Positions 8,871 through 61,550 of a stretch of 64,000 nt of DNA are shown in pieces. Source of the stretch: a virus (lineage: Duplodnaviria > Caudoviricetes). The number at the start of each line of letters is the position of its first letter. Positions within the stretch are counted from its first letter, which is position 1. The notes under the pieces are model-generated. The model saw only the letters and a program-made list of their open reading frames with translations, did no database searches and was not told the origin of the DNA. The position numbers were made by a program, and so were the translations under genes. The stretch is taken from positions 11,586-75,585 of IMG/VR virus record IMGVR_UViG_3300028832_000128, one strand, 5' to 3'.

Positions 8871-8875
8871 AAAAT

Positions 8876-9037: not shown

Positions 9038-9045
9038 CATATTTT

Positions 9046-11557: not shown

Positions 11558-11566
11558 TTTGCACCC

Positions 11567-12471: not shown

Positions 12472-12472
12472 A

Positions 12473-12793: not shown

Positions 12794-12797
12794 ATAT

Positions 12798-13377: not shown

Positions 13378-13801
13378 ATTTTTTATATTCTCTAATAAAA
13401 ACAGTTAATGCAATAAAAAAATCTCCTATAACTGACACTTCTTCGGATGAAAAATTAAATTCTCTTTCACATAAATTAATCAATCCGAATCCAGTGTTAT
13501 TTGTTATTCTAATTATCATTAAATAAGTTTTCCCTTTGTTCCAAAGAGTGTTTCTGACTTCAAGAAAAACATTTATTCTATCGTTTTGAAAAATATATTC
13601 TCGTTTTGATAAGATTTCTCTGTTTCTTGACTCTATTTCTTTATAAATATTGTTTTTATCTATACATTTAAAGTTTAATTGTTTAAACAAACGACATATT
13701 ATGTCTATTTCGATTTCTATCATTTCAGAAAAATCCCTCATTCTTTGTTCTCCTTGCGTTTTAACAAACTTGTAAATTATATTTTCCGTATTTTTTAACA
13801 A
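13322..13801 (-). CDS. Hypothetical protein (start probably internal)
   Basis: ORF in early operon. Confidence 0.5.
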   Translation of the reverse strand: MLKNTENIIYKFVKTQGEQRMRDFSEMIEIEIDIICRLFKQLNFKCIDKNNIYKEIESRNREILSKREYIFQNDRINVFLEVRNTLWNKGKTYLMIIRITNNTGFGLINLCEREFNFSSEEVSVIGDFFIALTVFIREYKKFETQEQNNVNVSSKERVV

Positions 13802-14273
13802 AGTCTATATACTTAAAACTTCCGTCTATTTGTTGGTTTTTTATTTCAGTCTCTGTTGAATAATCGCAGTCGACATATAAATGACAACCGGATTCGTTTT
13901 TGTATTTAGCTAAATTAAGTTTTTTGTGCCAATAATCAAAATGTTGTCTATCTGATAAAACAAGTAGTTTAAAATCTTTTTTATCACAATTTAAGTTCGA
14001 ACCGAACTTAATACATTCATCTAAATTTTTACATCTTCGAATATAAACTTTCCAACCGTCATCAAAATGGACTCCGAAAGGGTTAGAAAAACTCGCTCCT
14101 TCTAAAGGTTTTAAACATTCTTTGCCTAATAAAAAATAAAGATGATCTAAAAGATTATCCTCTGTTTCAAAAACAGGATAACTTGTAGTTTTGTATAAGC
14201 TTTTAAAGATTGCTAAATATAAAGGTTTTTTATATTCTTTACAGAAAAAACGTCTAATCCAAAATGGAACCAT
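13761..14273 (-). CDS. Hypothetical protein
   Basis: RBS AAGGAGAC upstream. Confidence 0.6.
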   Translation of the reverse strand: MVPFWIRRFFCKEYKKPLYLAIFKSLYKTTSYPVFETEDNLLDHLYFLLGKECLKPLEGASFSNPFGVHFDDGWKVYIRRCKNLDECIKFGSNLNCDKKDFKLLVLSDRQHFDYWHKKLNLAKYKNESGCHLYVDCDYSTETEIKNQQIDGSFKYIDFVKKYGKYNLQVC

Positions 14274-14527
14274 TATTTTGTCTCCTTAAAATAAACATAT
14301 TTACCGTCTTTCCTTGCGAACGCTCCGCATGGCACCGCAGGACAATGAAACCTATTCAGGTTAAAAAAACACTTCTTACACTGCTCTTTAATACTGCTTT
14401 CAATTACTTCCAATTTAAATTTTCTAACGCCGTAATTACCATCTTCCCATTGATAAAATACAGGTAACTCCACAACTTCAACTACCATCTTCCTAAATGT
14501 ATCCTTGTTTTTAATTCGTTTCTCCAA
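14273..14527 (-). CDS. Hypothetical Cys-rich protein
   Basis: CKKCFF...CPAVPC...RKDGK pattern. Confidence 0.55.
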   Translation of the reverse strand: MEKRIKNKDTFRKMVVEVVELPVFYQWEDGNYGVRKFKLEVIESSIKEQCKKCFFNLNRFHCPAVPCGAFARKDGKYVYFKETK

Positions 14528-14679
14528 TAGCCGATCCGGTAATCATTAATCACGGAATTAACCACAAATAAAATCATAAATACTTTAAAATACCATGCAC
14601 AACTTAAACTACATACAAACCAAACCAACGCTGCCGGAATTAAAATTGTTCTTACTACAGCCCAAATCATTCTAAACAT
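14482..14679 (-). CDS. Small membrane protein
   Basis: Two hydrophobic segments. Confidence 0.5.
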   Translation of the reverse strand: MFRMIWAVVRTILIPAALVWFVCSLSCAWYFKVFMILFVVNSVINDYRIGYWRNELKTRIHLGRW

Positions 14680-14998
14680 GTTTTTCTTCTCCTTGATATT
14701 TTTTTATTACGTCTAATTTTGCTTTTGCAATATCAAAATCAAACTGATATGTTCCTACTACGTAACCCATACCACCGGCGTTGCTCATACCTACGCCGAT
14801 TTTTTCAGTTTTGTTTTTTGTGTATTGCAAATAAGCGTTATAAAGCTCTGTATTACCTTTTATTTTTTGAGTAACAATATAATTGCGGATAATCATACCG
14901 TCTAAATACGGAGTTCTTTTGATTTTTGTTTTGTGATAAGTAAACCTTAACACTCTCTCCAATAATTTCCCTACCTTATCAACCTGATAACCCTTCAT
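14672..14998 (-). CDS. Hypothetical protein
   Basis: Coupled to neighbouring genes. Confidence 0.55.
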   Translation of the reverse strand: MKGYQVDKVGKLLERVLRFTYHKTKIKRTPYLDGMIIRNYIVTQKIKGNTELYNAYLQYTKNKTEKIGVGMSNAGGMGYVVGTYQFDFDIAKAKLDVIKKYQGEEKHV

Positions 14999-15204
14999 TT
15001 GTCCAGCTCCTTTTTAATTTTATTTAAACTCCAATATTTACAACCGTTTCCGAATTTTTTACCTGCAATTCCCCAAATCTTCATACGATGATAAACTCCG
15101 TCTCTATCTTTTAAACCGAAAAATTGTCTCAAAAACTCCGCATTTACATATTTGTCGCCAAAAAGCTCCTTAACATCGGGCTTAATTTCATTTACTACTT
15201 GCAT
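14995..15204 (-). CDS. Excisionase/Cro-like small DNA-binding protein
   Basis: First gene of the early operon, divergent from the repressor; winged-helix-like 69 aa. Confidence 0.55.
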   Translation of the reverse strand: MQVVNEIKPDVKELFGDKYVNAEFLRQFFGLKDRDGVYHRMKIWGIAGKKFGNGCKYWSLNKIKKELDK

Positions 15205-15265
15205 ACAACCCCCTTAAAACCTTTTACAACCGTTGCAAAAACTACACAAAACGGCTATAATTAAT

Positions 15266-15357
15266 AAAAGGCTGTAGGATATGGGTAAGATAACCTACAG
15301 CCGGCTCATAGCTCTCTTTTGGCGAAAGATACAACAATATTATTGTTGTCGCTATGA
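15266..15357 (-). ncRNA. Structured antisense/attenuator RNA, P4 CI- or P1 C4-like
   Basis: TCATAGC/GCTATGA stem; ACAACAA/TTGTTGT hairpin; ATCTTTCGCC segment; GGCTGTAGG/CCTACAGCC hairpin with TCTTACCCAT in the loop, then TTTT. Confidence 0.65.
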
Positions 15358-15404
15358 TTTTTTATAAAAGTTTGTTGTGATAAGAAAAAAAGATTTTTAC
15401 CCAT
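15306..15404 (-). CDS. Putative 32-aa leader peptide MGKNLFFLSQQ...
   Basis: Start overlaps the ATGGGTAA target; frame runs through the structured RNA. Confidence 0.4.
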   Translation of the reverse strand: MGKNLFFLSQQTFIKNHSDNNNIVVSFAKREL

Positions 15405-15430
15405 TTTTTTACCTTTCGCCAATTTTTTGT

Positions 15431-15483
15431 TTTGATTTGATTGTAAAACTTTTGATTTGATTGTAAAACTTTTTTAAAAGTTT
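15431..15483. promoter_or_regulatory. Putative operators: 20-bp tandem repeat tttgatttgattgtaaaact x2 and inverted repeat aaactttt-tt-aaaagttt
   Basis: Overlap the early promoter between the divergent xis/cro and repressor genes. Confidence 0.6.
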
Positions 15484-15488
15484 GTCAA
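15460..15488 (-). promoter_or_regulatory. Early lytic promoter (PR-like)
   Basis: TTGACA-17 bp-TACAAT. Confidence 0.8.
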
Positions 15489-15504
15489 GTATTTTTTTAA
15501 AAGA

Positions 15505-15864
15505 ATGAAAATAACTAATTTAAAAAACAAAATTAAACATTTATTATTAGAGCAAGGTTTAAGTCAGAGCGACCTTGCAAAAAAGATTGGTGTGCATAGA
15601 CAAGTTTTAACAAATTGGCTAAGCGGAACAAGGAATCCTAAAATAGAAAATTTAGAAAAGATAGCAAAGGCACTAAATATATCTGTAGAGGATTTATTGA
15701 ATGATAATAAAAATTTTTCAGACGTCCAAATCAATATTAACTCCAAAGGCAAAGTAAATCAGACAATCCAAAAACAAGATCTAAAAGACAAGGAGATTGA
15801 ATTGCTTAAAAAAGAGATTGAATTGCTTAAAAAAGAATTAGAATTAAGGAGAAAACAAAAATGA
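15505..15864 (+). CDS. CI-like repressor (XRE HTH) with coiled-coil C-terminus
   Basis: LSQSDLAKKIGVHRQVLTNWLSGTRNPKIENLEKIAKAL; no S24 peptidase domain. Confidence 0.9.
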   Translation: MKITNLKNKIKHLLLEQGLSQSDLAKKIGVHRQVLTNWLSGTRNPKIENLEKIAKALNISVEDLLNDNKNFSDVQININSKGKVNQTIQKQDLKDKEIELLKKEIELLKKELELRRKQK

Positions 15865-16118
15865 AAAAAATTCTATTATGCTGTTTGTTTTTGATGATAC
15901 CAGCGTTATGTTTGGCGGATCAATATGTAAATGGTTATTATCGTAAAGATGGAACTTATGTAAATGGTTATTATAGGTCGTCTCCAAATAACACGTCAAG
16001 AGATAATTACTCTTATAAAGATAACTATAATCCCTATACAGGAGAAACAGGATCGAATTATTACAGAAACGACAGAACATCAGAATATTACAACGGTTAC
16101 GGTCAAGATAGAAGATAA
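15861..16118 (+). CDS. Small secreted Tyr/Asn-rich protein
   Basis: Signal peptide, YVNGYYR x2, NYNPYTGETG. Confidence 0.75.
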   Translation: MKKILLCCLFLMIPALCLADQYVNGYYRKDGTYVNGYYRSSPNNTSRDNYSYKDNYNPYTGETGSNYYRNDRTSEYYNGYGQDRR

Positions 16119-16120
16119 AA

Positions 16121-16324
16121 ATGCGAACAACAATAATTATTATTTTGGCTTTTGTTATAGGTTTTCTTGTCGGTCAAGCAACACATATCTATACTTTTAA
16201 CAACAGGGGAGATATTAGATTAAATACTATAACCGGAGATATTACAACTGTAGGAGATCTTCTAAGATCGAACTCTAAAAATAATAATCGATTAAATTTA
16301 TCCGGATTAAATTTGGAAAAATAA
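16121..16324 (+). CDS. Small membrane/exported protein ending in LNLSGLNLEK
   Basis: N-terminal hydrophobic helix; 2-nt gaps to both neighbours. Confidence 0.7.
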   Translation: MRTTIIIILAFVIGFLVGQATHIYTFNNRGDIRLNTITGDITTVGDLLRSNSKNNNRLNLSGLNLEK

Positions 16325-16326
16325 CA

Positions 16327-17430
16327 ATGCAAGAATTAGAAGAAAGAAACGGTAAATTCAGTTTTAGATACTTCGATGTTGACGGTCATTTTCGTCGTCA
16401 TACTTGCGTTAGTTTATTAAAAAGAGAAGCCGAGCTTGAGCAGGCACAATTTTTATTGGATCTAAAAAAATCAAAAGCAGATTATAACGGTAAATATAAT
16501 ATCGATTCTCTTTTATGGTCTCATTTTTGTCAACTTTATTACAACAATTATGTAATACCGAACGAAATCGAACCATCAGCGGTTAAAACAGTAATAAAAC
16601 AAATCGATGAAATTTTACATATAAAATATTTAAAAGAATTAGATAACGAAAATATAAATCGTTTTATTGCGGAACGCAGAAAAACAGTTGTTTCGTCCAC
16701 AACAAACAGACAACTACATGTAATTAAAAGCATGTGGACCTACGCTATTAATACTTTGGAGTTAAATATAAAAAGCCCGGCAAAACCTATAAAAGACGCT
16801 CCTGTAGAATTAATTAAAAATATAGAATTTTTTACAAACGATGAAAGAAAAAAAATATTAAACCAAATTCAACCGGCTCATATTAAAACAATATGCTGGC
16901 TTATGTTTAGTTTTGCTTTAAGAATTAAAGAAGCTGTGTCGGTTCAATGGCAGGATATTAATTTTAAAACAGGTAAAATTTTTATATATCCGTTCAAAAC
17001 AAAACGCACGGATCCAAACAGAATATCGCTTACCATGCCAACCGATTTTATTGCTTATATAAAAAAATTACCACGTAAATCAGATTTTATATGCGGTAAA
17101 GATTATACAAGCAAAAATGCACGCTCGGTTATTTCAAAACAAATAAAAAAACGATTTATAGAGATTATAGGCAAAGGCAGGTCTCACATGTGCAGACACA
17201 CTTTTGTCAGTCATGCAATAAATAATCCGGAAATAAAAGATAGGGATATAATGAAAGTAGCAAGGATAAAAAATCCTAAAGTATTAGAGATTTATGCTCA
17301 CTACACAAAGGAAAGAGAACAAACCATAGCAAATAATATATACAACATACATCAAATCACGCCTCAGGAAATCGATAAAAAGATAAAAGAATTGCTTGAA
17401 TTAAAGAGTAAATTAACCAAATCTAAATAA
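16327..17430 (+). CDS. int: Tyrosine integrase
   Basis: R (ALRIKE), HxxR (HMCRHTF) and Y (IYAHY) catalytic motifs; adjacent att site. Confidence 0.92.
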   Translation: MQELEERNGKFSFRYFDVDGHFRRHTCVSLLKREAELEQAQFLLDLKKSKADYNGKYNIDSLLWSHFCQLYYNNYVIPNEIEPSAVKTVIKQIDEILHIKYLKELDNENINRFIAERRKTVVSSTTNRQLHVIKSMWTYAINTLELNIKSPAKPIKDAPVELIKNIEFFTNDERKKILNQIQPAHIKTICWLMFSFALRIKEAVSVQWQDINFKTGKIFIYPFKTKRTDPNRISLTMPTDFIAYIKKLPRKSDFICGKDYTSKNARSVISKQIKKRFIEIIGKGRSHMCRHTFVSHAINNPEIKDRDIMKVARIKNPKVLEIYAHYTKEREQTIANNIYNIHQITPQEIDKKIKELLELKSKLTKSK

Positions 17431-17431
17431 T

Positions 17432-17632
17432 AAATTTACCCAAATTTTACCCATATAGACGAGAGATATTACCTTGAGAGGGCGATGTCCTAAACCGCTA
17501 GACGATGGCAGCAGTTCCACTCTTTTAATACTGTTTTACACGACTTTTTATTGATTTTTGAATAAATTTCAACCTTTTTCAACCTTTCCAAACCTTTCCA
17601 AAACGTTATAAAATTTACCCAAATTTTACCCA
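17432..17632. other. attP-form attachment site
   Basis: aaatttacccaaattttaccca at 17432 and 17611 flank the tRNA-derived core; three 10-bp aacctttYYM repeats at 17571-17600 (possible Xis sites). Confidence 0.75.
17472..17512 (-). pseudogene. 5' half of tRNA-Glu(CUC), att core
   Basis: GCTGCCATCGTCTAGCGGTTTAGGACATCGCCCTCTCAAGG; similarity stops 2 nt after the anticodon loop; no T-arm. Confidence 0.85.
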
Positions 17633-17662
17633 AATTAAATATCTTTAACTACCACAAAAAAT

Positions 17663-17691
17663 ATTATACACAAAAAAAAGACTATTGTAAA
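17663..17691 (-). promoter_or_regulatory. Promoter pointing at the tRNA half
   Basis: TTTACA-17 bp-TATAAT overlapping the terminator. Confidence 0.6.
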
Positions 17692-17710
17692 ACAAACAAT
17701 AGTCTTTTTT
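17672..17710. terminator. Bidirectional terminator at the end of the late operon
   Basis: aaaaaagactattgt/acaatagtctttttt. Confidence 0.8.
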
Positions 17711-17724
17711 ATATTCTTTTGTTT

Positions 17725-20700
17725 TTAAGCGGCTTTTTTTACCGCTTTTTTATACTTGCGTAGCATATTTACAATTTCGTTTTCCATTTGTATTTTTGTT
17801 TTTTCATTATCCTTTTGCTGTTTAAAGGTTAATTTTTTTCTGCTATCCGTAGAATTTTTAACAAACTTATTATACGCCGTTATTTTCTTGCTAATACCTT
17901 TTATATACGGAGAATGTAACCTTAAATAATTCAGCTCTTCAGATGTCAATTTTCTCAAACCTTCTTTATAAGATTTTTCCAAAGCCTCAAACCTTTCTCT
18001 TTCGTCATAAAATTGTTGCATTTCTCGCCCGTAAATAAAATAACTTTCTTGTAGCCACGGTATAACAGATTTTCTAAATGCCTTTTCTTTTTCCGAAACA
18101 TTACCGGTAACAAAATCGGCAAGGTCTGTTTGTGTTTTACCTGACAATTTATCAAAAATAAATTCAGCACCTTTTTCAAGAATACTCCCAACTTGCCCCG
18201 CTACATTATAAATATAATAATCTATTTTAATCGGAGCAATATTAAATTGCTTACCTAAAAACTTTGCAATGTTACTTGTTTTTTCGTCATACTGTAATGC
18301 TTTTTCTCTCTTTTGCAAATACTTCGGAACAATATCTTGCAACGTCGGATAAGTCTTTTTCCCGCCGCCAAGCATTAATCCTATTTTTACTATCTGCGGA
18401 AAATTTCTATACATCAATTGTTCCCATCCTGAATTATCTTTTTCAATTAAGGTTTTAAGTAAAGGAACAACAACGTTAAAATTATCCGGAATAACTCCGC
18501 CTGTTAAAGTTTCTGCGTATTCGCTCAATTTGTAATCATACTCGTTTTTAATTTCGTCATGAATCATTGCAGCTATAACAGCAGGAAAAGAATACAATTG
18601 CTCCCATGGCAACCTTAACAAATCCGTATTATTTAATCCAAACGGCAGATAAGCAAATCTCAAAAACTGAGCAGGATTTAACTGTTCTTTTAGATTTTTT
18701 CTTGTTTCATCCTTAATATTATCCCACCACAACGAAACAACAAACTGAAATATACCATAACCTATCATGGCAAACAATGTTTTTAAGAATTTATTTTTTT
18801 CTTTGTATTCATAAACACCTTTATTGTTTTGTTGTAAATTAACAACTTTACGTCTTTCTAATAAATTATTTCCTTTTGTTGTAAGCAAACTTCTTACACC
18901 TTGTCTTATTACCTGAAGAGAAGCGTTCATATATGGAACCGACCTTAATAAAGATCTGCCGAATCCGCCACCCCATAAACCTCTATCGCCAAACGGGACC
19001 GAAACTTCGTCAGCCATTCTTTTAGCCGTAATAATATCAAAGCCCGCCGCTCTTGCTTTTACATACTCCGTTCTTCTTGTAACAACTTCAGACAGATTCG
19101 GTAAAAACGATAATACTTTTCTTGCTCCGCCGAAAATTTTACTTAAAGTATTTGTTTTAAACGCTTCTGCTAAATCGTCCGGATTAACTTCATCCAAACT
19201 TGTAATAAGAGCTTTGTTATCTCCAAACAACTCGTTATATTCGTCATAATACTGTTTTAATTCAGGATTTTGTCTACATTTCACATAACTCATTAAAGGA
19301 GAAAAAAACGGAACATATCCCATATCAGAATTAACAGCTGCCGTTATCTGATCTCTTGCAAAGTTAGTTGTTGCAAAAACAGGATTTTCCGCTGTAGTCA
19401 TTAATGTAAAAAACTTTGCAGGAGCAACCATCAATTTTTCTATTAAGCTCATTTGATAATTATCAATCAAACTATCCCAAACCTTTTTAACAAACGGATC
19501 CATTTCTAAAGTTTGTTTAATATCTTTACCAGTTTGTCTGTTAGTTCCGACTACAACGAGCTTACTGTTATTTTTTTCGTCTCCTTTTGTATAAGGAACC
19601 TTTTGCATAAGGTCCGGATATAACTCGGCAATTTCGCCCATTCTGTTAGCTATCAACTGTTTATAACTTTTCTTATATGCTTCTTTCATTAGTTGTATCG
19701 AAGAGTATAACGGAGAAAGAATAGGCAACTCGCTACCTTCAATCTTTTTTAAGTTTTTAATATTCCAGTTCGAAGATACTATTTTTGGAATAACGTCGTT
19801 TTTTGCTCCGATTTTTTCAACAAACTCTTTACCATCCCCGGTAAGCTCATTATAAGCTACTCTGTTAAACGGAGCATAACCGTAATTAGCAACAAGCTCG
19901 TTATACATATCTTTATCAATTAACTTTGCTGTTCTTAATACGGTTAAATTACACTTCATTAAAAAGTCATATTTTTTTGCAAGTTCTCTGTTTTGTGTAT
20001 TATCTAAAAACTTATACGCCTCTTTAATTTTTTCTTCATTCTTTCCGCTTTTAGCAAGAATACTTTGCAACTCTTGCAACTTTGCACCGTCTTGTTCAAT
20101 CTTTTTTGTAAGTTTGTCAATTTCTCTTTTTAAATCTTGTTCCAATTGAAACGTTGTTTTTTGATCGTGTATGTTATAAAAATCCTGCTCTTTAATTTTT
20201 TTGCTTACTTCGTCATATCTTTTTTGCAGCTTCTTCAAATTGTTTCCACTAATCACAAGCCCGTTTGCAAGTTTATCTCGCATATCATACCAAGCCACAA
20301 AACGCCTTGCTACTAAATATCCGTTAAACTCACTTTGTGCTTTTTGCACATCTTCAATTAATGTTCTCCAATTAACAGTATCACTCACTTTTACCGGATT
20401 GCCGTGATTATCAATTATATACATCTTACCTTTTTTGTTGGTTAAATTGTTTTCTAATATACCTTTTAAAACGGTTCTATATCCTTTTGCTGTTAAATAC
20501 AAATCCTTGTCCAGCATTTTTAATACGGCTTCACTATCAAATAATTGACTATCGATTCTTACCCCAAGCGGAATTTTTGTTTTATCTTTTACTTTTTGAG
20601 CTTTATCATATATCTCGGTTGTAAGTTGTTCTACAGGATTTAAACTTTCATAATCAACAACAATTTGTCTTGCGTCATTTCTAAAAGATTGTAAAGTATC

Positions 20701-23700
20701 GTTACCCATAGCCCACTTATAAGCGTTAGGATATAAATTTTCTATCATATCCGGATTAATTATCGAATGTTGGATTATTGTAGCAAGTCCTTCAGCCAAT
20801 CTGTTTTTTACACTTTGTTTTGAAATATCTACAGGATATAAGTCTTTACATGCTTTCAATATTTCTGCAGCTGCTTTACCTTCAAAAGTGTTTATATCAG
20901 GCACAAAGGTCGTAAACGCTCTTTTGCCTTTATATGTTGTATTTGCTGTAAATCCTTTATCGTAAAGGTCTGTAATAATTTGTTGTTGGTCGTCAATAGC
21001 GTGCACAAGCTCATGAGCAACCACATCTACATTAAGTAAACTGTTTAAATAAATATTGCCTTTTCTGCTACCGTAATTATAATACACTCCCAAAGTATTT
21101 TTAGGTCTGTATTTGCTTTCGGCAATATTGCTTACCATATACTTTTTAGCCAAATCGTAAGTTCTTTGATACAATTTAAAATCTTTTTCTTTTGGTGTTT
21201 CGTTATTTTTTATTTTTACATCGGTTTTAAGTGCGGAACTATAAGCGGCTCTGCCTTTACCGCCTAAGGATAAATTTACAGAACCGTTTTCTTTTTCAAT
21301 TTCTTTTTTTACTTCGTCTGCTTTGTTTTTAATCGATTTAAGATTTTTGAATTTAGATAAATATTTTGCCTGTTCACTGGTAAATTCTCTTGCGGTATTT
21401 GCAAGGTTTTCTTGTTGAAAGAATTTGTCTATAAGAAGATTACCGAGCTTATTTTCAAGTTCGGTTAAAGTGTCGGCGGTTACTCTTCCCCGTAAAACTT
21501 CGCTCCCTGTGATTTCTCCAACGCTTTCCACTCTTCCATTTCTTTGTCCATCTCCATCGATTCTTGCGGTGTTATCAGCCTGTTCGGCTTGCTGGATAAG
21601 CTGTCGAGCTTGGAGCTCTGTAAGCTCTTCTGAGGATTCTGCGATATTGTTTTTTCTGACATAATCATCCACTGCCCCCTTACTAAACTTATTATACAAT
21701 ATTTTTGCGTTTTTGTCATCCCCTATATTTGCTCCGCCTTGTCCTGCTCCTAAACAACTCGTTGCTACAACGGTTCCGCCGTTTCTTTCAATATATTTTC
21801 TTAGCTCGTTTATATTTGCTCCCATTGTAAATATATCGTCCACTAAAATATATTGTAAATTAGGCACCACTTCGCCGCTAAACATTGCCTTGTCTACTAT
21901 TCTATACATCGCTCCCGAACCGGTATGATAAGTTTTGTTTATTTGTTTAATCTTATCGTATAATTTTAATCCTGTAATTCGTCTAATTTTACCGGCATAA
22001 GCTAAAGGAATTTTGTTTTTACCTGCTTTTTCTATGGACCATAACGGCACAATTACAGCATTAGGATATTTTTCTTTTAATGCTTTTAATTGTTCGATTT
22101 TGCCTTGTATATTTTTTGCTACACTTGCACTTTTGCCGTTAGTATCAAATATTTTGTCCACTAATTCGTAAGCACTTTTTAAATCTCCTGCTTTAGCTTT
22201 TTTATGTAAATCACTATATTTTATTACATTAGGCGTAATCGTTATTTGCACGGAATCAACAGGTTTTGTTATAGGGCAATTTATTTTTTGTAACGTATCA
22301 TTTTGTATTACACTGTCTTCGATGTTTTTTGTTGCCTTTATTTGTTCGTTGTTTGTTTTTCCGTCAACGGCAAGCCCTAAATCTTCATATTTGCCTACAA
22401 TTCTGTCGATACTTTCAAGTTCTTCCCAAATACTTGCGTTGTCGTTGCCTGTTGCTTCTTGCAAAGTATGCTCGGCTTGATCCCACGTATAACCTTTATT
22501 ATTTATAATACCATCTTTTTCGTCATAAAAAAATTCTCTTCTTATTCTCGGACTTAAATGTTCATACTCTCCATAATTTGGATCGCCCTTTTTAGGTCTT
22601 ACAATTCTACCGATACCCATATCTTTTAATCTTTGTTTTTCGCTTTTAATTGTAGGTATAGCTCCATCTTGTTTTAACTCTTCGATAATCATTTGTTCGT
22701 ATTCTTCTTTTGCTCTTGCCTCATCTTCCAATTGTTTGGCATAATTCTCATCCCACTCGGCAGGATTAAACGATGTATCGATATTACTATCGTCATTAAT
22801 AATACTGTCTGTTTGTTCTGTTTCTATGTTTTCAATAGGTTGTTCAATAACTTGCGGATAATTTGTTGACACATCCACCAACACATTATTCGGACTTATA
22901 TAATTTATACCGTTTCCGTAAGTAATAAACCCTAACAATCCGTTCTTTTCTCCTATATATATTCCGTAACTCGAATTATTTATTTTATAAATATTTCCTT
23001 TTACAGGTTCGAACTCTTTATTGTTTATATTGCTCGGCAAATTCTTCGATGTTTCTTCTGTAGGATTTTCAATTACATTTGCTAATCTTTGTCTTATAAT
23101 ACTTGCTTCTGTATTTTTTACTTGCTTTGTTATGTTTTCCAAAGTATCGTTATATTTAATGTTTACATCTGAATTAACCTTAACAATGTTTTTACCTGTT
23201 TCAATTCGCCCCGGTTCAATGTTTACATCTGTATTAATCGGTTTTTCTGCTTGCGGAATTTTTGCCATTTTGGTTTTGATATTTATTGCTACAGCGTCAT
23301 CCGGGCTTATATTTTTAGCTGCTTTATCTATAGCGGTTTTAAACTGTTTTTCCTGCTCCGGACTTACTTTGTAGCCTGCTTTCTTCAATTTGTCAATTGT
23401 GTTATTTGCTGCGTCAGATAACAAAGTTTTTTTAAACTTGTTTACACCAGCACCTATAACAGCGGTATCTCCTACAGCTTCCAATAAGCTCGCTCCGAGT
23501 TTTATGTATTCGTTAGTATCTTCAGGTAACGTTTCAGCCAACATTCTTATTTGCATAGGAGAATATTTTTCGCCTTTAGCTTTTGTTACTATCAAATTTT
23601 TTAACTGTTGCAACCCCGCAAACCCTGCCAAGGCAGTTACAGGCATTGCACCGGTTAAAGCAAGTGTAGGCAATTGTGCCGATAACACTGCAAAATCTTG

Positions 23701-24174
23701 TTTATCTTTTAATTTTTTTAACTCTTCGATGTTTTTAACACTGCCACCGGCAGAGGCGACAGCTATTTTATTTCCTAAAATATCAAAACTATCAGGCTCA
23801 TAAATTGTTTTAGCTTTATCGTCTTCGGCTGTTCTTGCTCTTAAAATAGGCTCTGTATTGTTATATTCTTTTACCATAGAACTGTTTGCGATATTTTTAA
23901 TAACATTAACAGGATTAACCGTATTTTTAATTGTATCTGTAACGGTATCGATATTTTTTGCAGCATTAACCGCAGGGCTTATAACTTTATTTACTCCGTC
24001 ATACAACTTACTGCCTGCAGCTTCTAATATATCGGTAACGGATTTTTTATCTTTTTCTAAACCAAGCCCGGATAAATCCATTTCGCTTTTATCTTCTTTC
24101 TCTAAGTTTAATCCGCTCAAATCTATTTTGTTTTTATCTTCTTTTTCTAAGTTTAATCCGCTCAAATCAAGCAT
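17725..24174 (-). CDS. Giant ejection/polyvalent protein, 2149 aa (PRTase-like domain, HExxH zincin-like motif, LPD-like C-terminus)
   Basis: ILVDDIFTMGA PRPP-loop motif; HELVH...E; last gene of the podovirus ejection cluster. Confidence 0.7.
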   Translation of the reverse strand: MLDLSGLNLEKEDKNKIDLSGLNLEKEDKSEMDLSGLGLEKDKKSVTDILEAAGSKLYDGVNKVISPAVNAAKNIDTVTDTIKNTVNPVNVIKNIANSSMVKEYNNTEPILRARTAEDDKAKTIYEPDSFDILGNKIAVASAGGSVKNIEELKKLKDKQDFAVLSAQLPTLALTGAMPVTALAGFAGLQQLKNLIVTKAKGEKYSPMQIRMLAETLPEDTNEYIKLGASLLEAVGDTAVIGAGVNKFKKTLLSDAANNTIDKLKKAGYKVSPEQEKQFKTAIDKAAKNISPDDAVAINIKTKMAKIPQAEKPINTDVNIEPGRIETGKNIVKVNSDVNIKYNDTLENITKQVKNTEASIIRQRLANVIENPTEETSKNLPSNINNKEFEPVKGNIYKINNSSYGIYIGEKNGLLGFITYGNGINYISPNNVLVDVSTNYPQVIEQPIENIETEQTDSIINDDSNIDTSFNPAEWDENYAKQLEDEARAKEEYEQMIIEELKQDGAIPTIKSEKQRLKDMGIGRIVRPKKGDPNYGEYEHLSPRIRREFFYDEKDGIINNKGYTWDQAEHTLQEATGNDNASIWEELESIDRIVGKYEDLGLAVDGKTNNEQIKATKNIEDSVIQNDTLQKINCPITKPVDSVQITITPNVIKYSDLHKKAKAGDLKSAYELVDKIFDTNGKSASVAKNIQGKIEQLKALKEKYPNAVIVPLWSIEKAGKNKIPLAYAGKIRRITGLKLYDKIKQINKTYHTGSGAMYRIVDKAMFSGEVVPNLQYILVDDIFTMGANINELRKYIERNGGTVVATSCLGAGQGGANIGDDKNAKILYNKFSKGAVDDYVRKNNIAESSEELTELQARQLIQQAEQADNTARIDGDGQRNGRVESVGEITGSEVLRGRVTADTLTELENKLGNLLIDKFFQQENLANTAREFTSEQAKYLSKFKNLKSIKNKADEVKKEIEKENGSVNLSLGGKGRAAYSSALKTDVKIKNNETPKEKDFKLYQRTYDLAKKYMVSNIAESKYRPKNTLGVYYNYGSRKGNIYLNSLLNVDVVAHELVHAIDDQQQIITDLYDKGFTANTTYKGKRAFTTFVPDINTFEGKAAAEILKACKDLYPVDISKQSVKNRLAEGLATIIQHSIINPDMIENLYPNAYKWAMGNDTLQSFRNDARQIVVDYESLNPVEQLTTEIYDKAQKVKDKTKIPLGVRIDSQLFDSEAVLKMLDKDLYLTAKGYRTVLKGILENNLTNKKGKMYIIDNHGNPVKVSDTVNWRTLIEDVQKAQSEFNGYLVARRFVAWYDMRDKLANGLVISGNNLKKLQKRYDEVSKKIKEQDFYNIHDQKTTFQLEQDLKREIDKLTKKIEQDGAKLQELQSILAKSGKNEEKIKEAYKFLDNTQNRELAKKYDFLMKCNLTVLRTAKLIDKDMYNELVANYGYAPFNRVAYNELTGDGKEFVEKIGAKNDVIPKIVSSNWNIKNLKKIEGSELPILSPLYSSIQLMKEAYKKSYKQLIANRMGEIAELYPDLMQKVPYTKGDEKNNSKLVVVGTNRQTGKDIKQTLEMDPFVKKVWDSLIDNYQMSLIEKLMVAPAKFFTLMTTAENPVFATTNFARDQITAAVNSDMGYVPFFSPLMSYVKCRQNPELKQYYDEYNELFGDNKALITSLDEVNPDDLAEAFKTNTLSKIFGGARKVLSFLPNLSEVVTRRTEYVKARAAGFDIITAKRMADEVSVPFGDRGLWGGGFGRSLLRSVPYMNASLQVIRQGVRSLLTTKGNNLLERRKVVNLQQNNKGVYEYKEKNKFLKTLFAMIGYGIFQFVVSLWWDNIKDETRKNLKEQLNPAQFLRFAYLPFGLNNTDLLRLPWEQLYSFPAVIAAMIHDEIKNEYDYKLSEYAETLTGGVIPDNFNVVVPLLKTLIEKDNSGWEQLMYRNFPQIVKIGLMLGGGKKTYPTLQDIVPKYLQKREKALQYDEKTSNIAKFLGKQFNIAPIKIDYYIYNVAGQVGSILEKGAEFIFDKLSGKTQTDLADFVTGNVSEKEKAFRKSVIPWLQESYFIYGREMQQFYDERERFEALEKSYKEGLRKLTSEELNYLRLHSPYIKGISKKITAYNKFVKNSTDSRKKLTFKQQKDNEKTKIQMENEIVNMLRKYKKAVKKAA

Positions 24175-24184: not shown

Positions 24185-25117
24185 TTATTTGTTTTTCTTT
24201 AAAACCGCAATAACTTTATTTATATTGTCTTCGGTAACTTTATAACCTTGTGCTTTTAATTGTTCAATTGCTTTTTGTCTTAAATCGTCGTTGTTGTTTG
24301 TTGTTTGTTTTTTCTCTTTTTTATTTCCAAACATCCTGCTCCAAAATCCGCCATCGTCTTCTTTGGTTCCTGTAGAATCTTGTCTGTTTTTGATTATCGT
24401 ATTATATTTTTTCAATACATCGTCATACAATCCGCTTGCTCTTAAATAACCGTTAGCAATCGAATCTTCTACCATACCAACTAAAACATCTTCGTCGCTT
24501 TTATTTCCGTATGGATCGAACCCTTTTCGCCATTTATTCAATTGATTCATTGCTTCCTTAGGCGTTATTACCCCGGCGTTTTCCTGTCTTCTTTGGTTAG
24601 TAGTTAAAGAGGATAGTCCGGATAATAAATTATAAGGCACTCTTTGCCCTGCTTTATATTTTGTATTGTAAACAGTATTTAAAATTTTTGCGGTTTGGTC
24701 GTCTAAGCTAACCATATAGTTACTTCCGCTTGTTACATCTTCTTTCGGCACATATCTTAAACCGTTGTTTCTTAACCTGCCGAAATCGCTTATATCTATC
24801 TTGTCTATTCTCTGTTGACTTTCTTGAGGTGTAGCAACCGTTGTAAAACTTTTTTTTGCAACTGTTTGTTCAGGTATAACTGTTTGCTCTCCTGCTACAA
24901 GATTATTCTCGTATAAATCCGCATTACCTTTTAAAGCGTTAGTCATCATACTTGTTACTATAGCGTCTTTTAATTTCTGTTCATAGGTCTTATCCTGATA
25001 CGCTCTGTCGTCAGCAACATTATCTCTATTTAATTGATTTTGTATAAATAAATTTAACATACCCGATAAATTTCTAAATGCTTTTGCAAAACCTAACTCG
25101 TTTGCATAATTAGACAT
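24185..25117 (-). CDS. Putative ejection protein
   Basis: Position between pilot-like and giant genes; helical; homolog at 61565-62500. Confidence 0.55.
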   Translation of the reverse strand: MSNYANELGFAKAFRNLSGMLNLFIQNQLNRDNVADDRAYQDKTYEQKLKDAIVTSMMTNALKGNADLYENNLVAGEQTVIPEQTVAKKSFTTVATPQESQQRIDKIDISDFGRLRNNGLRYVPKEDVTSGSNYMVSLDDQTAKILNTVYNTKYKAGQRVPYNLLSGLSSLTTNQRRQENAGVITPKEAMNQLNKWRKGFDPYGNKSDEDVLVGMVEDSIANGYLRASGLYDDVLKKYNTIIKNRQDSTGTKEDDGGFWSRMFGNKKEKKQTTNNNDDLRQKAIEQLKAQGYKVTEDNINKVIAVLKKNK

Positions 25118-55088: not shown

Positions 55089-58000
55089 TTAAGCTGCTTT
55101 TTTAACCGCTCTTTTCCACTTGCGCAACAAATCTATAATCTGATTTTCCATATTGATTTTAGTTTGTTCATTTTCTTTTTGTTGTTTAAACGTTAAATTT
55201 TTTCTGTTATCGGTAGCGTTTTTAACAAACTTGTTATAATCTTTTATTCTTTTACTGATAGTTCTTATATGCGGAGCATTAGCCGATAAATATTTTAACT
55301 CTTCGGAATTTAATTTTCTTAATCCTTCTTTATGAGATTTTTCCAACGCTTCGAACTTTTCTTTTTCATCATAAAACTGTTGCATTTCTCTACCGTAAAT
55401 AAAATAACTTTCCTGTAACCATGGCATTACGGTCTTTCTAAATGCTTTTTCTTTTTCCGTAACATTTCCGGTAATAAAATCAGTAAGCCCTGTTTCTGTT
55501 TTTCCGGACAATTTATCAATAATAAATTCAGCACCTTTTTCAAACATACTGCCAACTTGCCCGGCTACATTGTAAAGATAATAATCTAATTTTATAGGAG
55601 CAATATTAAACTGTTTGCCTAAAAACTTCGCAAGGTCGCTTGTTTTTTCATCATACTGCATAGCTTTTTCTCGTTTCTGCAAATACTTCGGAACAATATC
55701 TTGTAACGTCGGATAGGTCTTTTTTCCACCGCCAAGCATTAACCCTATTTTTACTATTTGCGGAAAATCTCTATACATCAACTGTTCCCATCCTGAATTA
55801 TCTTTTTCAGCTAAAGTTTTAATCAAAGGAACAATAACATTAAAGTTATCCGGAATAACTCCACCGGTTAAAACTTCCGCATATTCGCTTAATTTATAAT
55901 CGTAATCATTTTTAAGTTCATCATGTATCATCGCACCTATTACAGCAGGAAAAGAATACAACTGTTCCCATGGTAACCTTAATAAATCCGTATCATTAAA
56001 TCCCCATGGCAAATAAGCAAATCTTATAAACTGAGCAGGATTTAACTGTTCTTTTAGATTCTTTCTTGTTTTATCGTCTATATAATCCCACCACAACGAA
56101 ACAGCTGTCTGAATTACACCTAATCCCATCATAGCAAACAAGGTTTTTAAAAATTTATTTTTTTCTTTATATTCATAAACACCGTTACTGTTTTGTTGCA
56201 AATTGACAATCTTTGGATTTTCTAATAAATTATTTCCTTTTGTTGTCAATAAACTTCTTATACCTTGTCTTACTACCTGAAGCCCTGCATTCATGTAAGG
56301 AACCGACCTTAACAACGATCTTCCGAAACCACCGCCCCACATTCCTCTATCACCAAACGGAACAGAAACTTCGTCAGCCATTCTTTTAGCTGTAATAATA
56401 TCAAATCCAGCTCCTCTTGCTTTTACATACTCGGTTCTTCTTGTTACAACTTCAGATAAGTTCGGTAAAAACGATAATATTTTTTTACCATATCCAAATA
56501 TTTTATATAACGCATTAGTTTTAAATGCTTGTGCTAAATCGTCCGGATTAACTTCATCCAAATTTGAAAGAAAAGTATTACTCTCACCAAATAACTCATT
56601 GTATTCATCAAAATATTGTCTTAATTCAGGATTTTGTCTGCATTTAACATAAGTCATTATAGGAGTAAAAAACGGAACATATCCCATATCTGAATTAACG
56701 CTTGCTGTTATCTGATCCCTCGCAAAGTTTGTTATTGCAAAAATAGGATTTTCTGCCGTTGTCATCAATGTAAAAAACTTTGCCGGAGCAACCATCATTT
56801 TTTCTACAACGCTCATTTTGTAGTTATCAATCAAACTATCCCAAACCTTTTTAACAAATGGATCCATTTCTAAAGTCTGTTTTATTTCTTTGCCTGTAGC
56901 TCTGTCTGTTCCAACTATAACAAGTTTACTGTTATTTTTTTCATCTCCTGTTTTATACGGAACCTTTTGCATAAGCTCCGGATATAACTCGGCAATCTCG
57001 CCCATTCTATTAGCTACAATTTGTTTATAACTTTTCTTATACGCTTCTTTCATTAATTGTATTGAAGAGTATAATGGAGATAAAATCGGCAATTGGCTAC
57101 CTTCGATTTTTTTCAAGTTTTTAATATTCCAATTCGAAGATACTATTTTCGGTATAACATCGTTTTTTGCTCCAAACTGTTCAACAAACTCTTTACCATC
57201 TCCGGTAAGCTCGTTATAAGCTACTCTGTTAAACGGAGCATATCCGTAATTAGCAACAAGCTCATTATACATTTCTTTATCAATCAGCTTTGCTGTTCTT
57301 AATACGGTTAAATTACATCTCATTAAAAAATCATATTTTTTGGCAAGCTCTCTGTTTTGTGCGTTATCCAAAAACTTATAAGCGTCTTTTATATTCTGCT
57401 CATTTTTGCCGTTCTTTTCAAGAATACTTTGCAAATTCTGCAACTTCTCGCCTTCTTGCTTAATCTGTCTTGTAAGTTTATCAATTTCAATCCTTAAACT
57501 TCTTTCCAAATCGTAAGCCGCTTTCTGATCGTGTATATTATAAAAATCATCTTTCTTGATTTTCTCGCTTACTTCGTTATATTTTTGCTGCAACTTTTTT
57601 AAATTATTTCCTAAAACTTCAATTCCGTTTGCTATTTTATCACGGTTTTCATACCATGTAACAAATCTTCTTGCTACCAAATATCCGTTAAATTCACTTT
57701 GTGCCTTTTGCACATCTTCAATTAAAGTTCTCCAATTTACATTGTCGCTTACTTTTACCGGATTGCCACGACTATCAATTATATACATCTTACCGTCTTT
57801 ATTAGTTAAATTATTTTCTAATATACCTTTTAAAACGGTTCTATATCCTTTTGCTGTTAAATACAAGTCTTTATCCAACATTTTTAATACAGCTTCACTA
57901 TCAAACAACTGACTATCGATTCTTACACCAAGCGGAATTTTTGTTTTTGCTTGCACTTTTTGAGCTTTATCGTAAATTTCAGTTGTCAGTTTTTCTACAG

Positions 58001-61000
58001 GATTTAAACTTTCATAATCGACAATAATCTGTCTTGCGTCATCTCTAAACGATTGTAACGTTTCATTACTCATAGCCCATTTATACGCATTACCGTAAAA
58101 ATTTTCTATCATATCCGGATTAATTATCGAATGTTGAATTAACGTAGCAAGTCCTTCAGCTAATCTGCTTTTTACACTTTGTTTTGAAATATCTGTAGGA
58201 TATAAATCTTTAGCCGCTTTTAACAATTCATCAGCTGCTTTTCCTTCAGGAATGCTTATATCAGGAATAAACGTTGTTATAGCTTTTTTACCTTTAAACG
58301 TTGTTACTGCTTTAAATCCTTTCTCGTAAAGGTCATTTATAATTTGCAACTTATCATCAATAGCATGCACCAACTCATGAGCTACCACATCCACATTAAG
58401 CAAACTGTTTAAATAAATATTGCCTTTTCTGCTACCATAATTATAATACACGCCTAAAGTGTTTCTCGGTCTGTATTTGCTTTCAGCAATATTATTAACC
58501 ATGTATTTTGTAGCCAAATCATAAGTTCTTTGATATAACTTAAAATCACTCATTTTTGGCTTTTCGTTACTATTGATTTTTACATCGGTTTTAAGTGCAG
58601 AACTATAAGCCGGTCTTGTTTTACTACTTAAAGACAAATCTATAGAGTTATTATTTTCGTCTTCAAGTTTTAATTTGTTTTTTACATCGTCGGCTTTTGT
58701 TTTTACGGATTCAAGATTTTTAAATTTAGATAAATATTTTGCTTGTTCTGTAGTAAATTCCGCTGCACTGTTGGCAAGATTTTCTTTTTGAAAAAAACTG
58801 TCTACAAGGAAATTACCGAACTTATCTTTAAGCTCGGTTAAAGTTTTTTCGGTTACTCTTCCCCGTAAAACTTGATCCCATCCGCTTCGCAATCCTTCTT
58901 CCATTCTTCCATTTCGTTGTCCATTTCCACTGCTTCCTGCGGAGTTATCAACCTGCTCGGCTTGTTGGATAAGCTGTCGAGCTTGGAGCTCTGTAAGTTC
59001 TTCTGAGGATCCTGCGATATTGTTTTTTCTGACATAATCATCTACTGCCCCCTTACTGAACTTATTATACAATATTTTTGCGTTTTTGTCATCACCTATA
59101 TTTGCTCCGCCTTTTCCTGCACCTAAACAACTTGTTGCTACAACCTTACCGCCGTTTCTTTCAATATACTTTCTTAACTCATTAATATTTGCACCCATTG
59201 TAAATATATCATCCACTATAATATATTCTAATTCAGGCACTACCTCGCCGCTAAATACCGCTTTATCAACAATTCTATCCATCGCTCCGGCACCGGTATG
59301 ATGAGTTTTATTTATTTGTTTAATTTTACCATAAGGTTTTAATCCTGTGATTTTCGCAACCTTTTTAGCATAAGCAAAAGGAATTTTGTTTTTACCTGCT
59401 TTTTCTATGGACCATAACGGCACAATTACAGCATTAGGATATTTTTCTTTCAACGCTTTTAATGCTTCAATTTTGTTTTGTATGTTTTTTCTTACGCTTG
59501 CACTTTTGCCGTTTGTGTCAAATATTTTATCTACCAGCTCATAAGCACTTTTAAGGTCTCCTGCTTTAGCTTTTTGATGTAACTGTTTATCTTTTATTAC
59601 ACTGCTTGTAATGGTTATCTGCACAGAATCAACCGGTCTTGTTATCGGACAATTTTGTTCTTGCAATGTTTCATTGTGTATTACAGCGTTTCCTATATTC
59701 TCTGTTGCTTTTATTTTTTTATCATTATCCTTGCCGACCGCAAGCCCTAAATCTTCATATCTGCTTACATTTCTTTCAATATCTTCAAGTTCTTCCCAAA
59801 TACTTGCGTTATCGTTTCCGGTTACTTCCTGTAAAGTATGCTCGGCTTGATCCCATGTATATCCTTTAGAATTTACAAGCCTGTCTTTTTCATCATAAAA
59901 AAACTCTCTTCTTATTCTCGGACTTAAATGCTCATACTCTCCATAATTCGGATCACCTTTTTTAGGTCTTACTATCCTACCAATTCCCATATCTCTTAAT
60001 CTTTGCTTCTCGCTTTTAATTGTAGGTATAGCACCGCTTTCTTTTAGCTCTTCAATCATCATTTTTTCGTATTGTTCTTGAGCTACAGCTTCATCTTCCA
60101 ACTGTTTAGCAAAATTCTCATCCCATTCAGCCGGATTAAAAGATGTATCGATGTTTTCGTTGTTATCAATAATTGCGTCGCTTTCTGCGTTTTCGCTTTG
60201 CAAAATATCGTTTTGAATTTCCGGATTTTTGATTTCCGGATAATTACTTGAAACATCGATTAACACATTGTTTGGACTTATATAGTTTATATTGTTTCCT
60301 GATCCAATAAATCCTAATAATCCGTTCTCTTTATTTTCTCCGACATATATCCCATAACTCGAATTATTTATTTTATAAATATTTCCTTTTACAAGTTCAA
60401 AATCACCTTTTACGTTATTAGGAAAATTTTTAATTGTTTCTTCTGTAGGATTTTCAACTACATTTTCTAATCTTTGTTTAACAATATTTGTTTTTGTGTT
60501 TTCAATTTGTTTGGTTATAGTTTTTAAATCTTTTTCATAATTTATTTTAATATTATCGTCGGTATTAACAATATCTTGCTCCATACCAATTCTTTTTGGT
60601 TCAACTTCGATGTTTGCTTTTTCTGTAGCTTTAGGCACTTTTGCCATTTTTGTTTTTATATTTATTGCTACAGCGTCATCCGGACTTATACTTTCAACTC
60701 TTTTATCTACAGCCGTTTTAAATCGTTGCTCTTGCTCCGAGGTTATTTTATACCCTGCTTTTTTAAGCTTATCAATTGTGTTGTTTGCTGCGTCTGTCAA
60801 CAATGTTTTTTTAAATTTGTTTACTCCTGCACCTATAACAGCAGTATCTCCAATCGCTTCCAATAAACTTGCTCCGAGTTTTACATATTCGTTAGTATCT
60901 TCCGGTAACATTTCAGCTAACATTTTTATTTGCATAGGAGAATATTTTTCTCCTTTAGCTTTTGTTACTATCAAATTTTTTAATTGTTGTAACCCTGCAA

Positions 61001-61550
61001 ATCCTGCCAACGCAGTAACAGGCATTGCACCGGTTAAAGCAAGTGTAGGTAGTTGTGCAGATAAAACAGCAAAAGTTTGTTTGTCTTTTAGCTTTTTTAA
61101 CTCTTCGATGTTTTTTACACTACCACCGGCAGAAGCAACGGCTATTTTATTTCCTAAAATATCAAAGCTATCAGGTTCATAAATAACCTTTGCGTTATCA
61201 TCTTGTTTTGTTCTTGCTCTTAAACTTGGTTCGATATTGTTGTATTCTTTTACCGTTGAATTATTAGCTATATTTTTTACTATATTTACAGGATTAACAG
61301 TATTTTTAATCACATCAGTAACAGCATTTATGTTTTTAGCCGTATCAATAGCAGGTTTTGTAATTTTGTTTATACCGTCATAAATTTTACTTCCTGCGTT
61401 TTCAAGCGTTTTGATAATAGGATTTTTCTCTTTCTCTAATTCAAGTTTGCTTAAATCAATTGTATTGTCGTTTTTTTCTAATTCCAATCCGCTCAAATCT
61501 ACTTTGTTTTTATTTTCTTTTTCTAAATCTAATCCGGACAAATCAAGCAT
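55089..61550 (-). CDS. Giant ejection/polyvalent protein, 2153 aa
   Basis: Diverged homolog of 17725-24174; IIVDDIFTMGA and HELVH conserved. Confidence 0.7.
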   Translation of the reverse strand: MLDLSGLDLEKENKNKVDLSGLELEKNDNTIDLSKLELEKEKNPIIKTLENAGSKIYDGINKITKPAIDTAKNINAVTDVIKNTVNPVNIVKNIANNSTVKEYNNIEPSLRARTKQDDNAKVIYEPDSFDILGNKIAVASAGGSVKNIEELKKLKDKQTFAVLSAQLPTLALTGAMPVTALAGFAGLQQLKNLIVTKAKGEKYSPMQIKMLAEMLPEDTNEYVKLGASLLEAIGDTAVIGAGVNKFKKTLLTDAANNTIDKLKKAGYKITSEQEQRFKTAVDKRVESISPDDAVAINIKTKMAKVPKATEKANIEVEPKRIGMEQDIVNTDDNIKINYEKDLKTITKQIENTKTNIVKQRLENVVENPTEETIKNFPNNVKGDFELVKGNIYKINNSSYGIYVGENKENGLLGFIGSGNNINYISPNNVLIDVSSNYPEIKNPEIQNDILQSENAESDAIIDNNENIDTSFNPAEWDENFAKQLEDEAVAQEQYEKMMIEELKESGAIPTIKSEKQRLRDMGIGRIVRPKKGDPNYGEYEHLSPRIRREFFYDEKDRLVNSKGYTWDQAEHTLQEVTGNDNASIWEELEDIERNVSRYEDLGLAVGKDNDKKIKATENIGNAVIHNETLQEQNCPITRPVDSVQITITSSVIKDKQLHQKAKAGDLKSAYELVDKIFDTNGKSASVRKNIQNKIEALKALKEKYPNAVIVPLWSIEKAGKNKIPFAYAKKVAKITGLKPYGKIKQINKTHHTGAGAMDRIVDKAVFSGEVVPELEYIIVDDIFTMGANINELRKYIERNGGKVVATSCLGAGKGGANIGDDKNAKILYNKFSKGAVDDYVRKNNIAGSSEELTELQARQLIQQAEQVDNSAGSSGNGQRNGRMEEGLRSGWDQVLRGRVTEKTLTELKDKFGNFLVDSFFQKENLANSAAEFTTEQAKYLSKFKNLESVKTKADDVKNKLKLEDENNNSIDLSLSSKTRPAYSSALKTDVKINSNEKPKMSDFKLYQRTYDLATKYMVNNIAESKYRPRNTLGVYYNYGSRKGNIYLNSLLNVDVVAHELVHAIDDKLQIINDLYEKGFKAVTTFKGKKAITTFIPDISIPEGKAADELLKAAKDLYPTDISKQSVKSRLAEGLATLIQHSIINPDMIENFYGNAYKWAMSNETLQSFRDDARQIIVDYESLNPVEKLTTEIYDKAQKVQAKTKIPLGVRIDSQLFDSEAVLKMLDKDLYLTAKGYRTVLKGILENNLTNKDGKMYIIDSRGNPVKVSDNVNWRTLIEDVQKAQSEFNGYLVARRFVTWYENRDKIANGIEVLGNNLKKLQQKYNEVSEKIKKDDFYNIHDQKAAYDLERSLRIEIDKLTRQIKQEGEKLQNLQSILEKNGKNEQNIKDAYKFLDNAQNRELAKKYDFLMRCNLTVLRTAKLIDKEMYNELVANYGYAPFNRVAYNELTGDGKEFVEQFGAKNDVIPKIVSSNWNIKNLKKIEGSQLPILSPLYSSIQLMKEAYKKSYKQIVANRMGEIAELYPELMQKVPYKTGDEKNNSKLVIVGTDRATGKEIKQTLEMDPFVKKVWDSLIDNYKMSVVEKMMVAPAKFFTLMTTAENPIFAITNFARDQITASVNSDMGYVPFFTPIMTYVKCRQNPELRQYFDEYNELFGESNTFLSNLDEVNPDDLAQAFKTNALYKIFGYGKKILSFLPNLSEVVTRRTEYVKARGAGFDIITAKRMADEVSVPFGDRGMWGGGFGRSLLRSVPYMNAGLQVVRQGIRSLLTTKGNNLLENPKIVNLQQNSNGVYEYKEKNKFLKTLFAMMGLGVIQTAVSLWWDYIDDKTRKNLKEQLNPAQFIRFAYLPWGFNDTDLLRLPWEQLYSFPAVIGAMIHDELKNDYDYKLSEYAEVLTGGVIPDNFNVIVPLIKTLAEKDNSGWEQLMYRDFPQIVKIGLMLGGGKKTYPTLQDIVPKYLQKREKAMQYDEKTSDLAKFLGKQFNIAPIKLDYYLYNVAGQVGSMFEKGAEFIIDKLSGKTETGLTDFITGNVTEKEKAFRKTVMPWLQESYFIYGREMQQFYDEKEKFEALEKSHKEGLRKLNSEELKYLSANAPHIRTISKRIKDYNKFVKNATDNRKNLTFKQQKENEQTKINMENQIIDLLRKWKRAVKKAA

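Follow-up and report, generated by a model that had tools for sequence, protein, structure and literature searches.

A short repeated peptide at the head of a giant phage protein reappears in the tails of small membrane proteins encoded in the lysogeny operon of the same phage group. The stretch of DNA in which we describe it, hereafter the window, comprises the 64,000 nucleotides from base 11586 to base 75585 of a 75.6-kb metagenomic virus record (G000; IMG/VR IMGVR_UViG_3300028832_000128), and starts inside the record. Its giant, P0002, is a 2149-residue LPD38 polyvalent protein (17725..24174, minus strand) that opens with three 15-residue xDLSGLxLEK repeats (residues 2-41; 24052..24171, minus strand). 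The membrane protein, P0001, has 67 residues and a single transmembrane (TM) segment (16121..16324, plus strand; identical copy at 53264-53467); its gene lies between repressor and integrase, and its tail, LNLSGLNLEK (16292..16321, plus strand), is a copy of the giant's N-terminal peptide. Sequence comparisons make it highly probable that this is functional mimicry at the protein level, maintained by selection. That the copy acts as a decoy, excluding superinfecting phages by competition, is a reading to which we give a probability of roughly one half.

The preliminary description of this DNA had drawn attention to the 67-residue open reading frame (ORF) in the repressor-integrase operon, its N-terminal hydrophobic segment and its LNLSGLNLEK end, all of which are borne out by translation and by Kyte-Doolittle hydropathy, the hydrophobic segment covering residues 1-26. 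The tripled motif at the start of the 2149-residue protein also reads exactly as quoted there, as do the diverged repeats LDLSGLDLEK, VDLSGLELEK and IDLSKLELEK (61431-61547) in P0013, the 2153-residue giant of a second phage unit in the window (55089..61550, minus strand). The end of P0001 agrees with the giant's tripled peptide in 9 of 10 residues; this is the best 10-mer match between P0001 and the 11,521 residues of the unit-B ORFs, against a maximum of 8, reached twice, in 300 shuffles. The codons differ between the two genes (TTA TCC GGA TTA AAT TTG in the small one, TTG AGC GGA TTA AAC TTA in the giant), and the serine codon of the peptide alternates between AGC and TCC from copy to copy. 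The small gene is real, since its frame is kept in three sequence variants, with a ratio of nonsynonymous to synonymous substitution rates (dN/dS) of about 0.34 between P0001 and a 68-residue homolog, P0007. This homolog is 65% identical to P0001 and ends in LDLSGLNLEKE, an 11/11 match with residues 2-12 of the giant, behind an asparagine- and lysine-rich linker that has diverged (proportion of nonsynonymous differences, pN, 0.46).

Further evidence comes from an unrelated membrane protein. The first 45 residues of the giant, searched against all shorter proteins of a 5.8-billion collection, returned one match, P0029, which has 214 residues and three hydrophobic helices and is not similar to the 67-residue family. 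Its contig (L046) carries a repressor end like that of the window, a 102-residue membrane protein, P0029, a HigB/HigA-like pair, the integrase of the group and the attachment region, a gene order that marks P0029 as the occupant of the corresponding repressor-integrase slot in a related phage. The last P0029 helix is followed by NLEKEDKNKIDLSGLGLEKED, identical in 21 of 21 residues to residues 8-28 of the giant of an Elusimicrobia prophage and in 20 of 21 to the window's giant. Across the 21 codons, the P0029 and prophage genes differ at 8 nucleotides, all of them synonymous (proportion of synonymous differences, pS, 0.80; pN 0), whereas 8 of 8 random changes would be silent with a binomial probability of about 4e-7. 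The Smith-Waterman score of the peptide match is 107, compared with a shuffle maximum of 59, and past the peptide no DNA similarity was found between the P0029 and giant genes. Silent-only divergence without flanking similarity rules out a recent, functionless transfer of DNA, and indicates that the peptide is held constant by selection in both proteins. The preliminary description had read the 9/10 match with differing codons as similarity at the protein level; its codons were right, and the silent differences of P0029 add that selection is at work.

Several observations concern the P0029 contig and its neighbors. The toxin-antitoxin-like pair (L046:1166-1795), between P0029 and the integrase, consists of Gp49 (HigB-like) and HI1420 (HigA-like) members, and the integrase is split into frames of 126 and 235 residues by a frameshift or a sequencing error. 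A 132-residue TM protein of another contig (L023:348-746) shares with P0029 (L046:973-1036) the C-terminal sequence ERPYD(I/M)QEELNQSIP(S/L)RFR(H/N), with 81% DNA identity over 116 bases. This 132-residue protein was considered as a further copy, as it contains SKLELE, found in repeat 3 of the second unit's giant, and is co-linear with giant residues 29-69; it was rejected because 87 of 2000 shuffles reach its score and almost equal scores are obtained with other stretches of the giant. A PYDIQE string common to the same protein and the portal (E 0.23) was taken as chance. On contig L024 (257-706), a frame of the 132-residue type runs past KSKLELE into sequence that by eye resembles the exodeoxyribonuclease VII large subunit; it may represent either a prophage-host junction or a chimeric contig.

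Beyond these copies the peptide and its carriers are rare. No relative of P0001 was found in the phage GenBank collection, IMG/VR, the JGI metagenomes or 401 Elusimicrobiota genomes, and a full HMMER search of 1.84 billion representatives recovered P0001's own cluster and a 56-residue homolog, P0025; P0029 had no relatives in 104 genomes of the order. P0001, P0007, P0025 and P0029 match no Pfam, PHROG or PADLOC family and show no relation to SieA or to other described exclusion or defence families. A narrow scan of IMG/VR with a degenerate DNA pattern, which misses AGT and TCT serine codons, gave nothing, and a wider one gave 8 matches, all unrelated (terminase, out-of-frame). Within a 2-Mb host-like Elusimicrobia metagenome-assembled genome, the peptide has no match other than the giant gene's three repeats, so it is not an imitation of any host protein encoded there.

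The N-terminal peptide of the giant is a swappable cassette. Giants of the group carry either of two N-terminal modules, the DLSGL triplet (type i) or MNYIEF...YPEYND...FPEYND (type ii). Between P0014 and P0011, 14 of 42 N-terminal columns are identical, then 64 of 65, then 97%, a jump that reveals a clean N-terminal swap in an otherwise near-identical gene. The giant of G001, an Elusimicrobia prophage, is far closer to that of the window over its first ~75 residues than over the remainder, with 38 of 41 residues identical in the repeat block (count from alignment A5) and ~36% identity thereafter. The type-ii cassette is also a repeat (KYPEYNDMDD...KFPEYNDITFDD; L003:1126-1260, L021:9851-10000, L002:10001-10130) and has no Pfam match. 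Its PEYND peptide occurs in the complete type-ii phage G002 in the giant gene only, with no type-ii mimic elsewhere in that phage.

The swap extends across the gene boundary. Directly upstream of the giant gene lies that of a 310-residue virion-module protein (24185..25117, minus strand), whose last ~35 residues change with the cassette: next to a DLSGL module the protein ends in a 35-residue extension, NNDDLRQKAIEQLKAQGYKVTEDNINKVIAVLKKNK (24188..24295, minus strand; alignment A3), and next to the other module it stops early, at KKDPLGIR. AlphaFold2 (AF2) predicts the extension as a helical hairpin, with helices at 275-290 and 296-308 and a predicted local distance difference test score (pLDDT) of 72-77, behind a disordered linker; the model of the whole protein (mean pLDDT 56) is too low in confidence for a fold search. 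Being exchanged together with the peptide, the hairpin is a candidate for its binding partner. A weak similarity between the C-terminus of the 310-residue protein and giant residues 45-66 (E 0.12) is not claimed.

The LPD38 domain of P0002 (PF18857, 34.4 bits against a cut-off of 27) covers residues 1946-2006. The protein also has a hydrophobic segment at 1796-1815, a HELVH motif at 1054 with a sub-threshold Peptidase_M4 match, and a match of residues 655-861 to phrog_22413, of unknown function. Its gene sits in the virion module. The searches found no relative of P0002 by sequence in the PDB, one among GTDB representatives and one in IMG/VR; the ESM Atlas gave no usable lead, and the AF2 model of residues 1-340 (mean pLDDT 36.6) is uninformative. 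In the portions of the sources available to us, packaging and injection are predicted for polyvalent proteins (Iyer et al. 2017, PMC5512222), and the LPD38 protein gp47 of phi24B, which was found in virions, is put forward as an ejection protein (bioRxiv 10.64898/2026.04.10.717836). P0002 resembles the proteins of these papers in its LPD38 domain, its zincin-type HEXXH motif and its place in a virion module, and by analogy with phi24B gp47 it may be packaged in the virion and ejected. The same portions describe no N-terminal address peptide, swappable cassette or prophage copy.

From these elements we propose a mechanism in which the tripled xDLSGLxLEK would serve as an address peptide heading the giant virion protein, and would act as a docking element as ejected proteins assemble the conduit for DNA entry. 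Prophages would express inner-membrane proteins bearing a copy of the peptide on a flexible tail past the last membrane helix, on what is predicted to be, probably, the periplasmic side. The membrane-tethered copies could then compete for the docking partner, for which the C-terminal hairpin of the 310-residue protein is the leading candidate, and so block the DNA entry of incoming phages with the same cassette. Placement in the inner membrane is predicted from hydropathy, which gives one N-terminal segment in the 67-residue family and, in P0029, a double segment of 46 residues as well as a single one. The charge pattern of P0029 is consistent with an acidic tail in the periplasm, the N-terminus and central loop being cytoplasmic. 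More tentatively, address peptides may in general pair with a matching hairpin of the neighboring protein and prophage copies may jam the conduit in a type-specific manner, which would select for cassette swaps and drive an arms race of peptides of 10-20 residues; such a scheme could hold across unrelated phage groups.

The nearest precedent is SieA of P22, a prophage inner-membrane protein that acts at the DNA-entry step of short-tailed phages and whose specificity maps to ejection proteins (Leavitt et al. 2024, PMC10883804). Like SieA, the proteins described here are prophage-encoded and predicted to lie in the inner membrane; unlike it, they have as their only recognizable feature a tethered, copied peptide, whereas SieA, to which they bear no sequence relation, is not reported to contain a copied segment of an ejection protein. 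HK97 gp15 and TP-J34 Ltp are small membrane- or lipid-anchored prophage proteins that stop DNA entry via the tape measure protein of the incoming phage; they are reported to bind this target by a folded domain, and act on long-tailed phages, and we know of no mimicry of the target's own sequence described for them. Exclusion by copying a peptide of an ejection protein was not found described in the published literature that we searched.

A survey of related contigs provides a comparison of slot and cassette. The repressor-integrase interval serves as a cargo site of variable content. Its occupants are for the most part membrane proteins, and no described family includes any of them. Besides the pair of 85- and 67-residue proteins (window twice, L018, L025, L026), the site contains a 68-residue protein (L001), a 171-residue multi-TM protein (G001, L027, L029), a helix-turn-helix (HTH) protein with an 82-residue three-TM protein (G002), a 119-residue protein (L030, L031), proteins of 85, 56 and 132 residues (L023), or a 102-residue protein with P0029 and the toxin-antitoxin pair (L046). 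In all four genomes that show both genes (window twice, L018, L025), a tailed small protein goes with a type-i giant. Contigs of four further runs, which are fragmentary, added no linked pairs of slot and giant. The table fits the decoy idea, but with so few relatives it is too thin to serve as a test. The preliminary description had asked whether the two motifs co-vary across related phages, and the outcome is divided: G002, the sole complete type-ii phage, has no copy of the peptide, as a decoy would predict, and the exceptions are the 56-residue P0025 and G001.

These exceptions belong to a set of observations that weigh against the decoy. P0025 retains the RLNTITGDITT core along with the membrane segment, stops before the linker and lacks the peptide, so that the tail appears as an add-on to an older core; its contigs, shorter than 1 kb, are too short to show which cassette the giant of its phage carries. 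The giant of G001 has the peptide, and the G001 slot holds the 171-residue membrane protein, with no copy. The four co-occurrences are not independent, as the 67-residue examples are near-identical. The evidence for topology is hydropathy and charge, and the charges of P0001 leave its orientation ambiguous under the positive-inside rule. Since the type-ii upstream protein has no C-terminal extension of any kind, the joint exchange of peptide and hairpin may be plain linkage. Finally, the record places side by side two type-i phages with identical small proteins, and if it represents a true tandem within one cell, exclusion is leaky or not absolute, or else the identity of the two small proteins is secondary.

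The main rival holds that the peptide is a shared docking or localization element that the membrane proteins use for something other than an entry block, for example to detect the incoming giant and set off abortive infection, or to keep the phage's own giant at the membrane once the prophage is induced. We rate this as rather unlikely, although selection on the peptide in both contexts shows that it has a function and not which one, P0029 adjoins a HigB/HigA-like pair, and, as the tail-less P0025 shows, the TM-plus-hairpin core has some role apart from the peptide. On the other side, the genes are part of a repressor operon expected to be on in lysogens and off late in infection; where membrane proteins of such slots are known, they block entry (PMC10883804); and no effector domain was found in the 67-residue protein among Pfam, PHROG and defence families. 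That the tails are relics of recombination, pieces of the giant's 5' end fused to slot genes by mosaic exchange and functionless there, is improbable. The group is indeed highly mosaic, with breakpoints beside the cassette and in the slot, and codon usage in a 32% G+C genome is biased strongly enough that short DNA segments stay similar, but a relic does not account for 8 of 8 synonymous differences over 21 codons, for a motif conserved behind a diverged linker, for two unrelated scaffolds that each carry the peptide after the last membrane helix, or for the lack of DNA similarity outside it. Chance likeness of short, low-complexity peptides rich in leucine, glutamate and lysine has a negligible probability: the sequences are short, the proteome is rich in lysine, glutamate, asparagine and leucine, and the weaker look-alike on L023 is not significant, but the 9/10, 11/11 and 21/21 matches were never reached by shuffles, which refutes chance for these three, and the peptide is absent from the 2-Mb host-like genome outside the giant gene. 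Of the proposal in the preliminary description, that a lysogen displays a tethered motif to exclude incoming virions, one part is thus well supported, namely a selected protein-level copy on lysogeny-operon membrane proteins of two unrelated scaffolds; exclusion itself keeps the even odds given above.

The lysogeny operon is compact, its four genes being separated by gaps of 2-3 nt. It begins with a Cro/CI-type HTH repressor (15505..15864, plus strand; second copy 52648-53007; Pfam HTH_3, 6.3e-19), with a promoter-like site upstream at 15233-15261. There follows an 85-residue secreted-type moron protein (15861..16118, plus strand; copy 53004-53261), identified by translation and by a match to phrog_29674 (4e-17, function unknown), which has a signal-peptide-like start and YVNGYYR repeats (YVNGYYRKDGTYVNGYYR) and accompanies the small membrane protein in the slot. 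After P0001 comes a tyrosine integrase, the last gene (16327..17430, plus strand; Pfam Phage_integrase 1.1e-13, phrog_1 1.9e-38). No terminator was found within the operon ahead of a bidirectional terminator-like hairpin (17674..17710) in the interval that separates the integrase from the 3' end of the giant gene, where the attP region lies. Relatives that are integrated have host serS and tad-pilus genes directly next to the giant gene's 3' end, which places the attachment site between integrase and giant. Contigs from two other runs match the window over the 38 bases 17472-17509 only and then continue into unrelated sequence; the start of this segment resembles a tRNA T-arm, and the match is compatible with a tRNA-gene origin of the attachment core.

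The window contains two related 37.1-kb phage units, 37,143 bases apart, and part of another at its start. The units are 98% identical over the early and lysogeny region (7129-17640 versus 44265-54784) and about 80% identical over the remainder, including the late genes; the repressor-to-integrase stretch shows 0 differences in 1926 nt. The whole record (1-75585) amounts to about two 37.1-kb units with a 1.2-kb end overlap at 94.5% identity, and may represent a tandem lysogen or a concatemer, or else the assembly may have walked across co-existing variants. The virion module comprises an SU10-type portal and adaptor, a large terminase, a capsid protein, a reverse transcriptase and an M15-type peptidase, and its minus-strand order runs terminase, SU10-type portal, SU10-type adaptor, and proteins of 983, 181 (with a fiber-like end), 109, 165 and 310 residues before the giant. 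The reverse transcriptase (34182-35198; RVT_1, 6.4e-18) adjoins a 101-base imperfect repeat (35379-35479 versus 35617-35717, 84%), and together they probably form a diversity-generating retroelement. A tRNA-Pro (CGG) gene lies at 43840-43917, in the early region of unit B.

This gene content is best explained by a temperate, SU10-like short-tailed phage of rumen Elusimicrobia. We infer the lysogen status from gene order, the source being a metagenomic virus record with no host chromosome. The sole named relative is G001, the prophage of an Elusimicrobia genome assembled from sheep rumen, and near-identical DNA is present in ruminant gut metagenomes from 14 studies. No RNA run was among the listed sequencing runs that carry the stretch.

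The host is uncultured, and direct binding tests would not require it, given the small size of the peptide (LDLSGLNLEKEDKNK) and the hairpin. Exclusion at the step of DNA entry is a known strategy of prophages, but how the resident protein recognizes the incoming phage is mostly unknown. If the decoy reading is true, the copied peptide would constitute a readable specificity code, so that sequence alone would be enough to predict which phages are excluded by a lysogen. It would also provide a role for the short N-terminal repeats of giant polyvalent proteins, and would explain why N-terminal cassettes are swapped between genes that are otherwise 97-98% identical.

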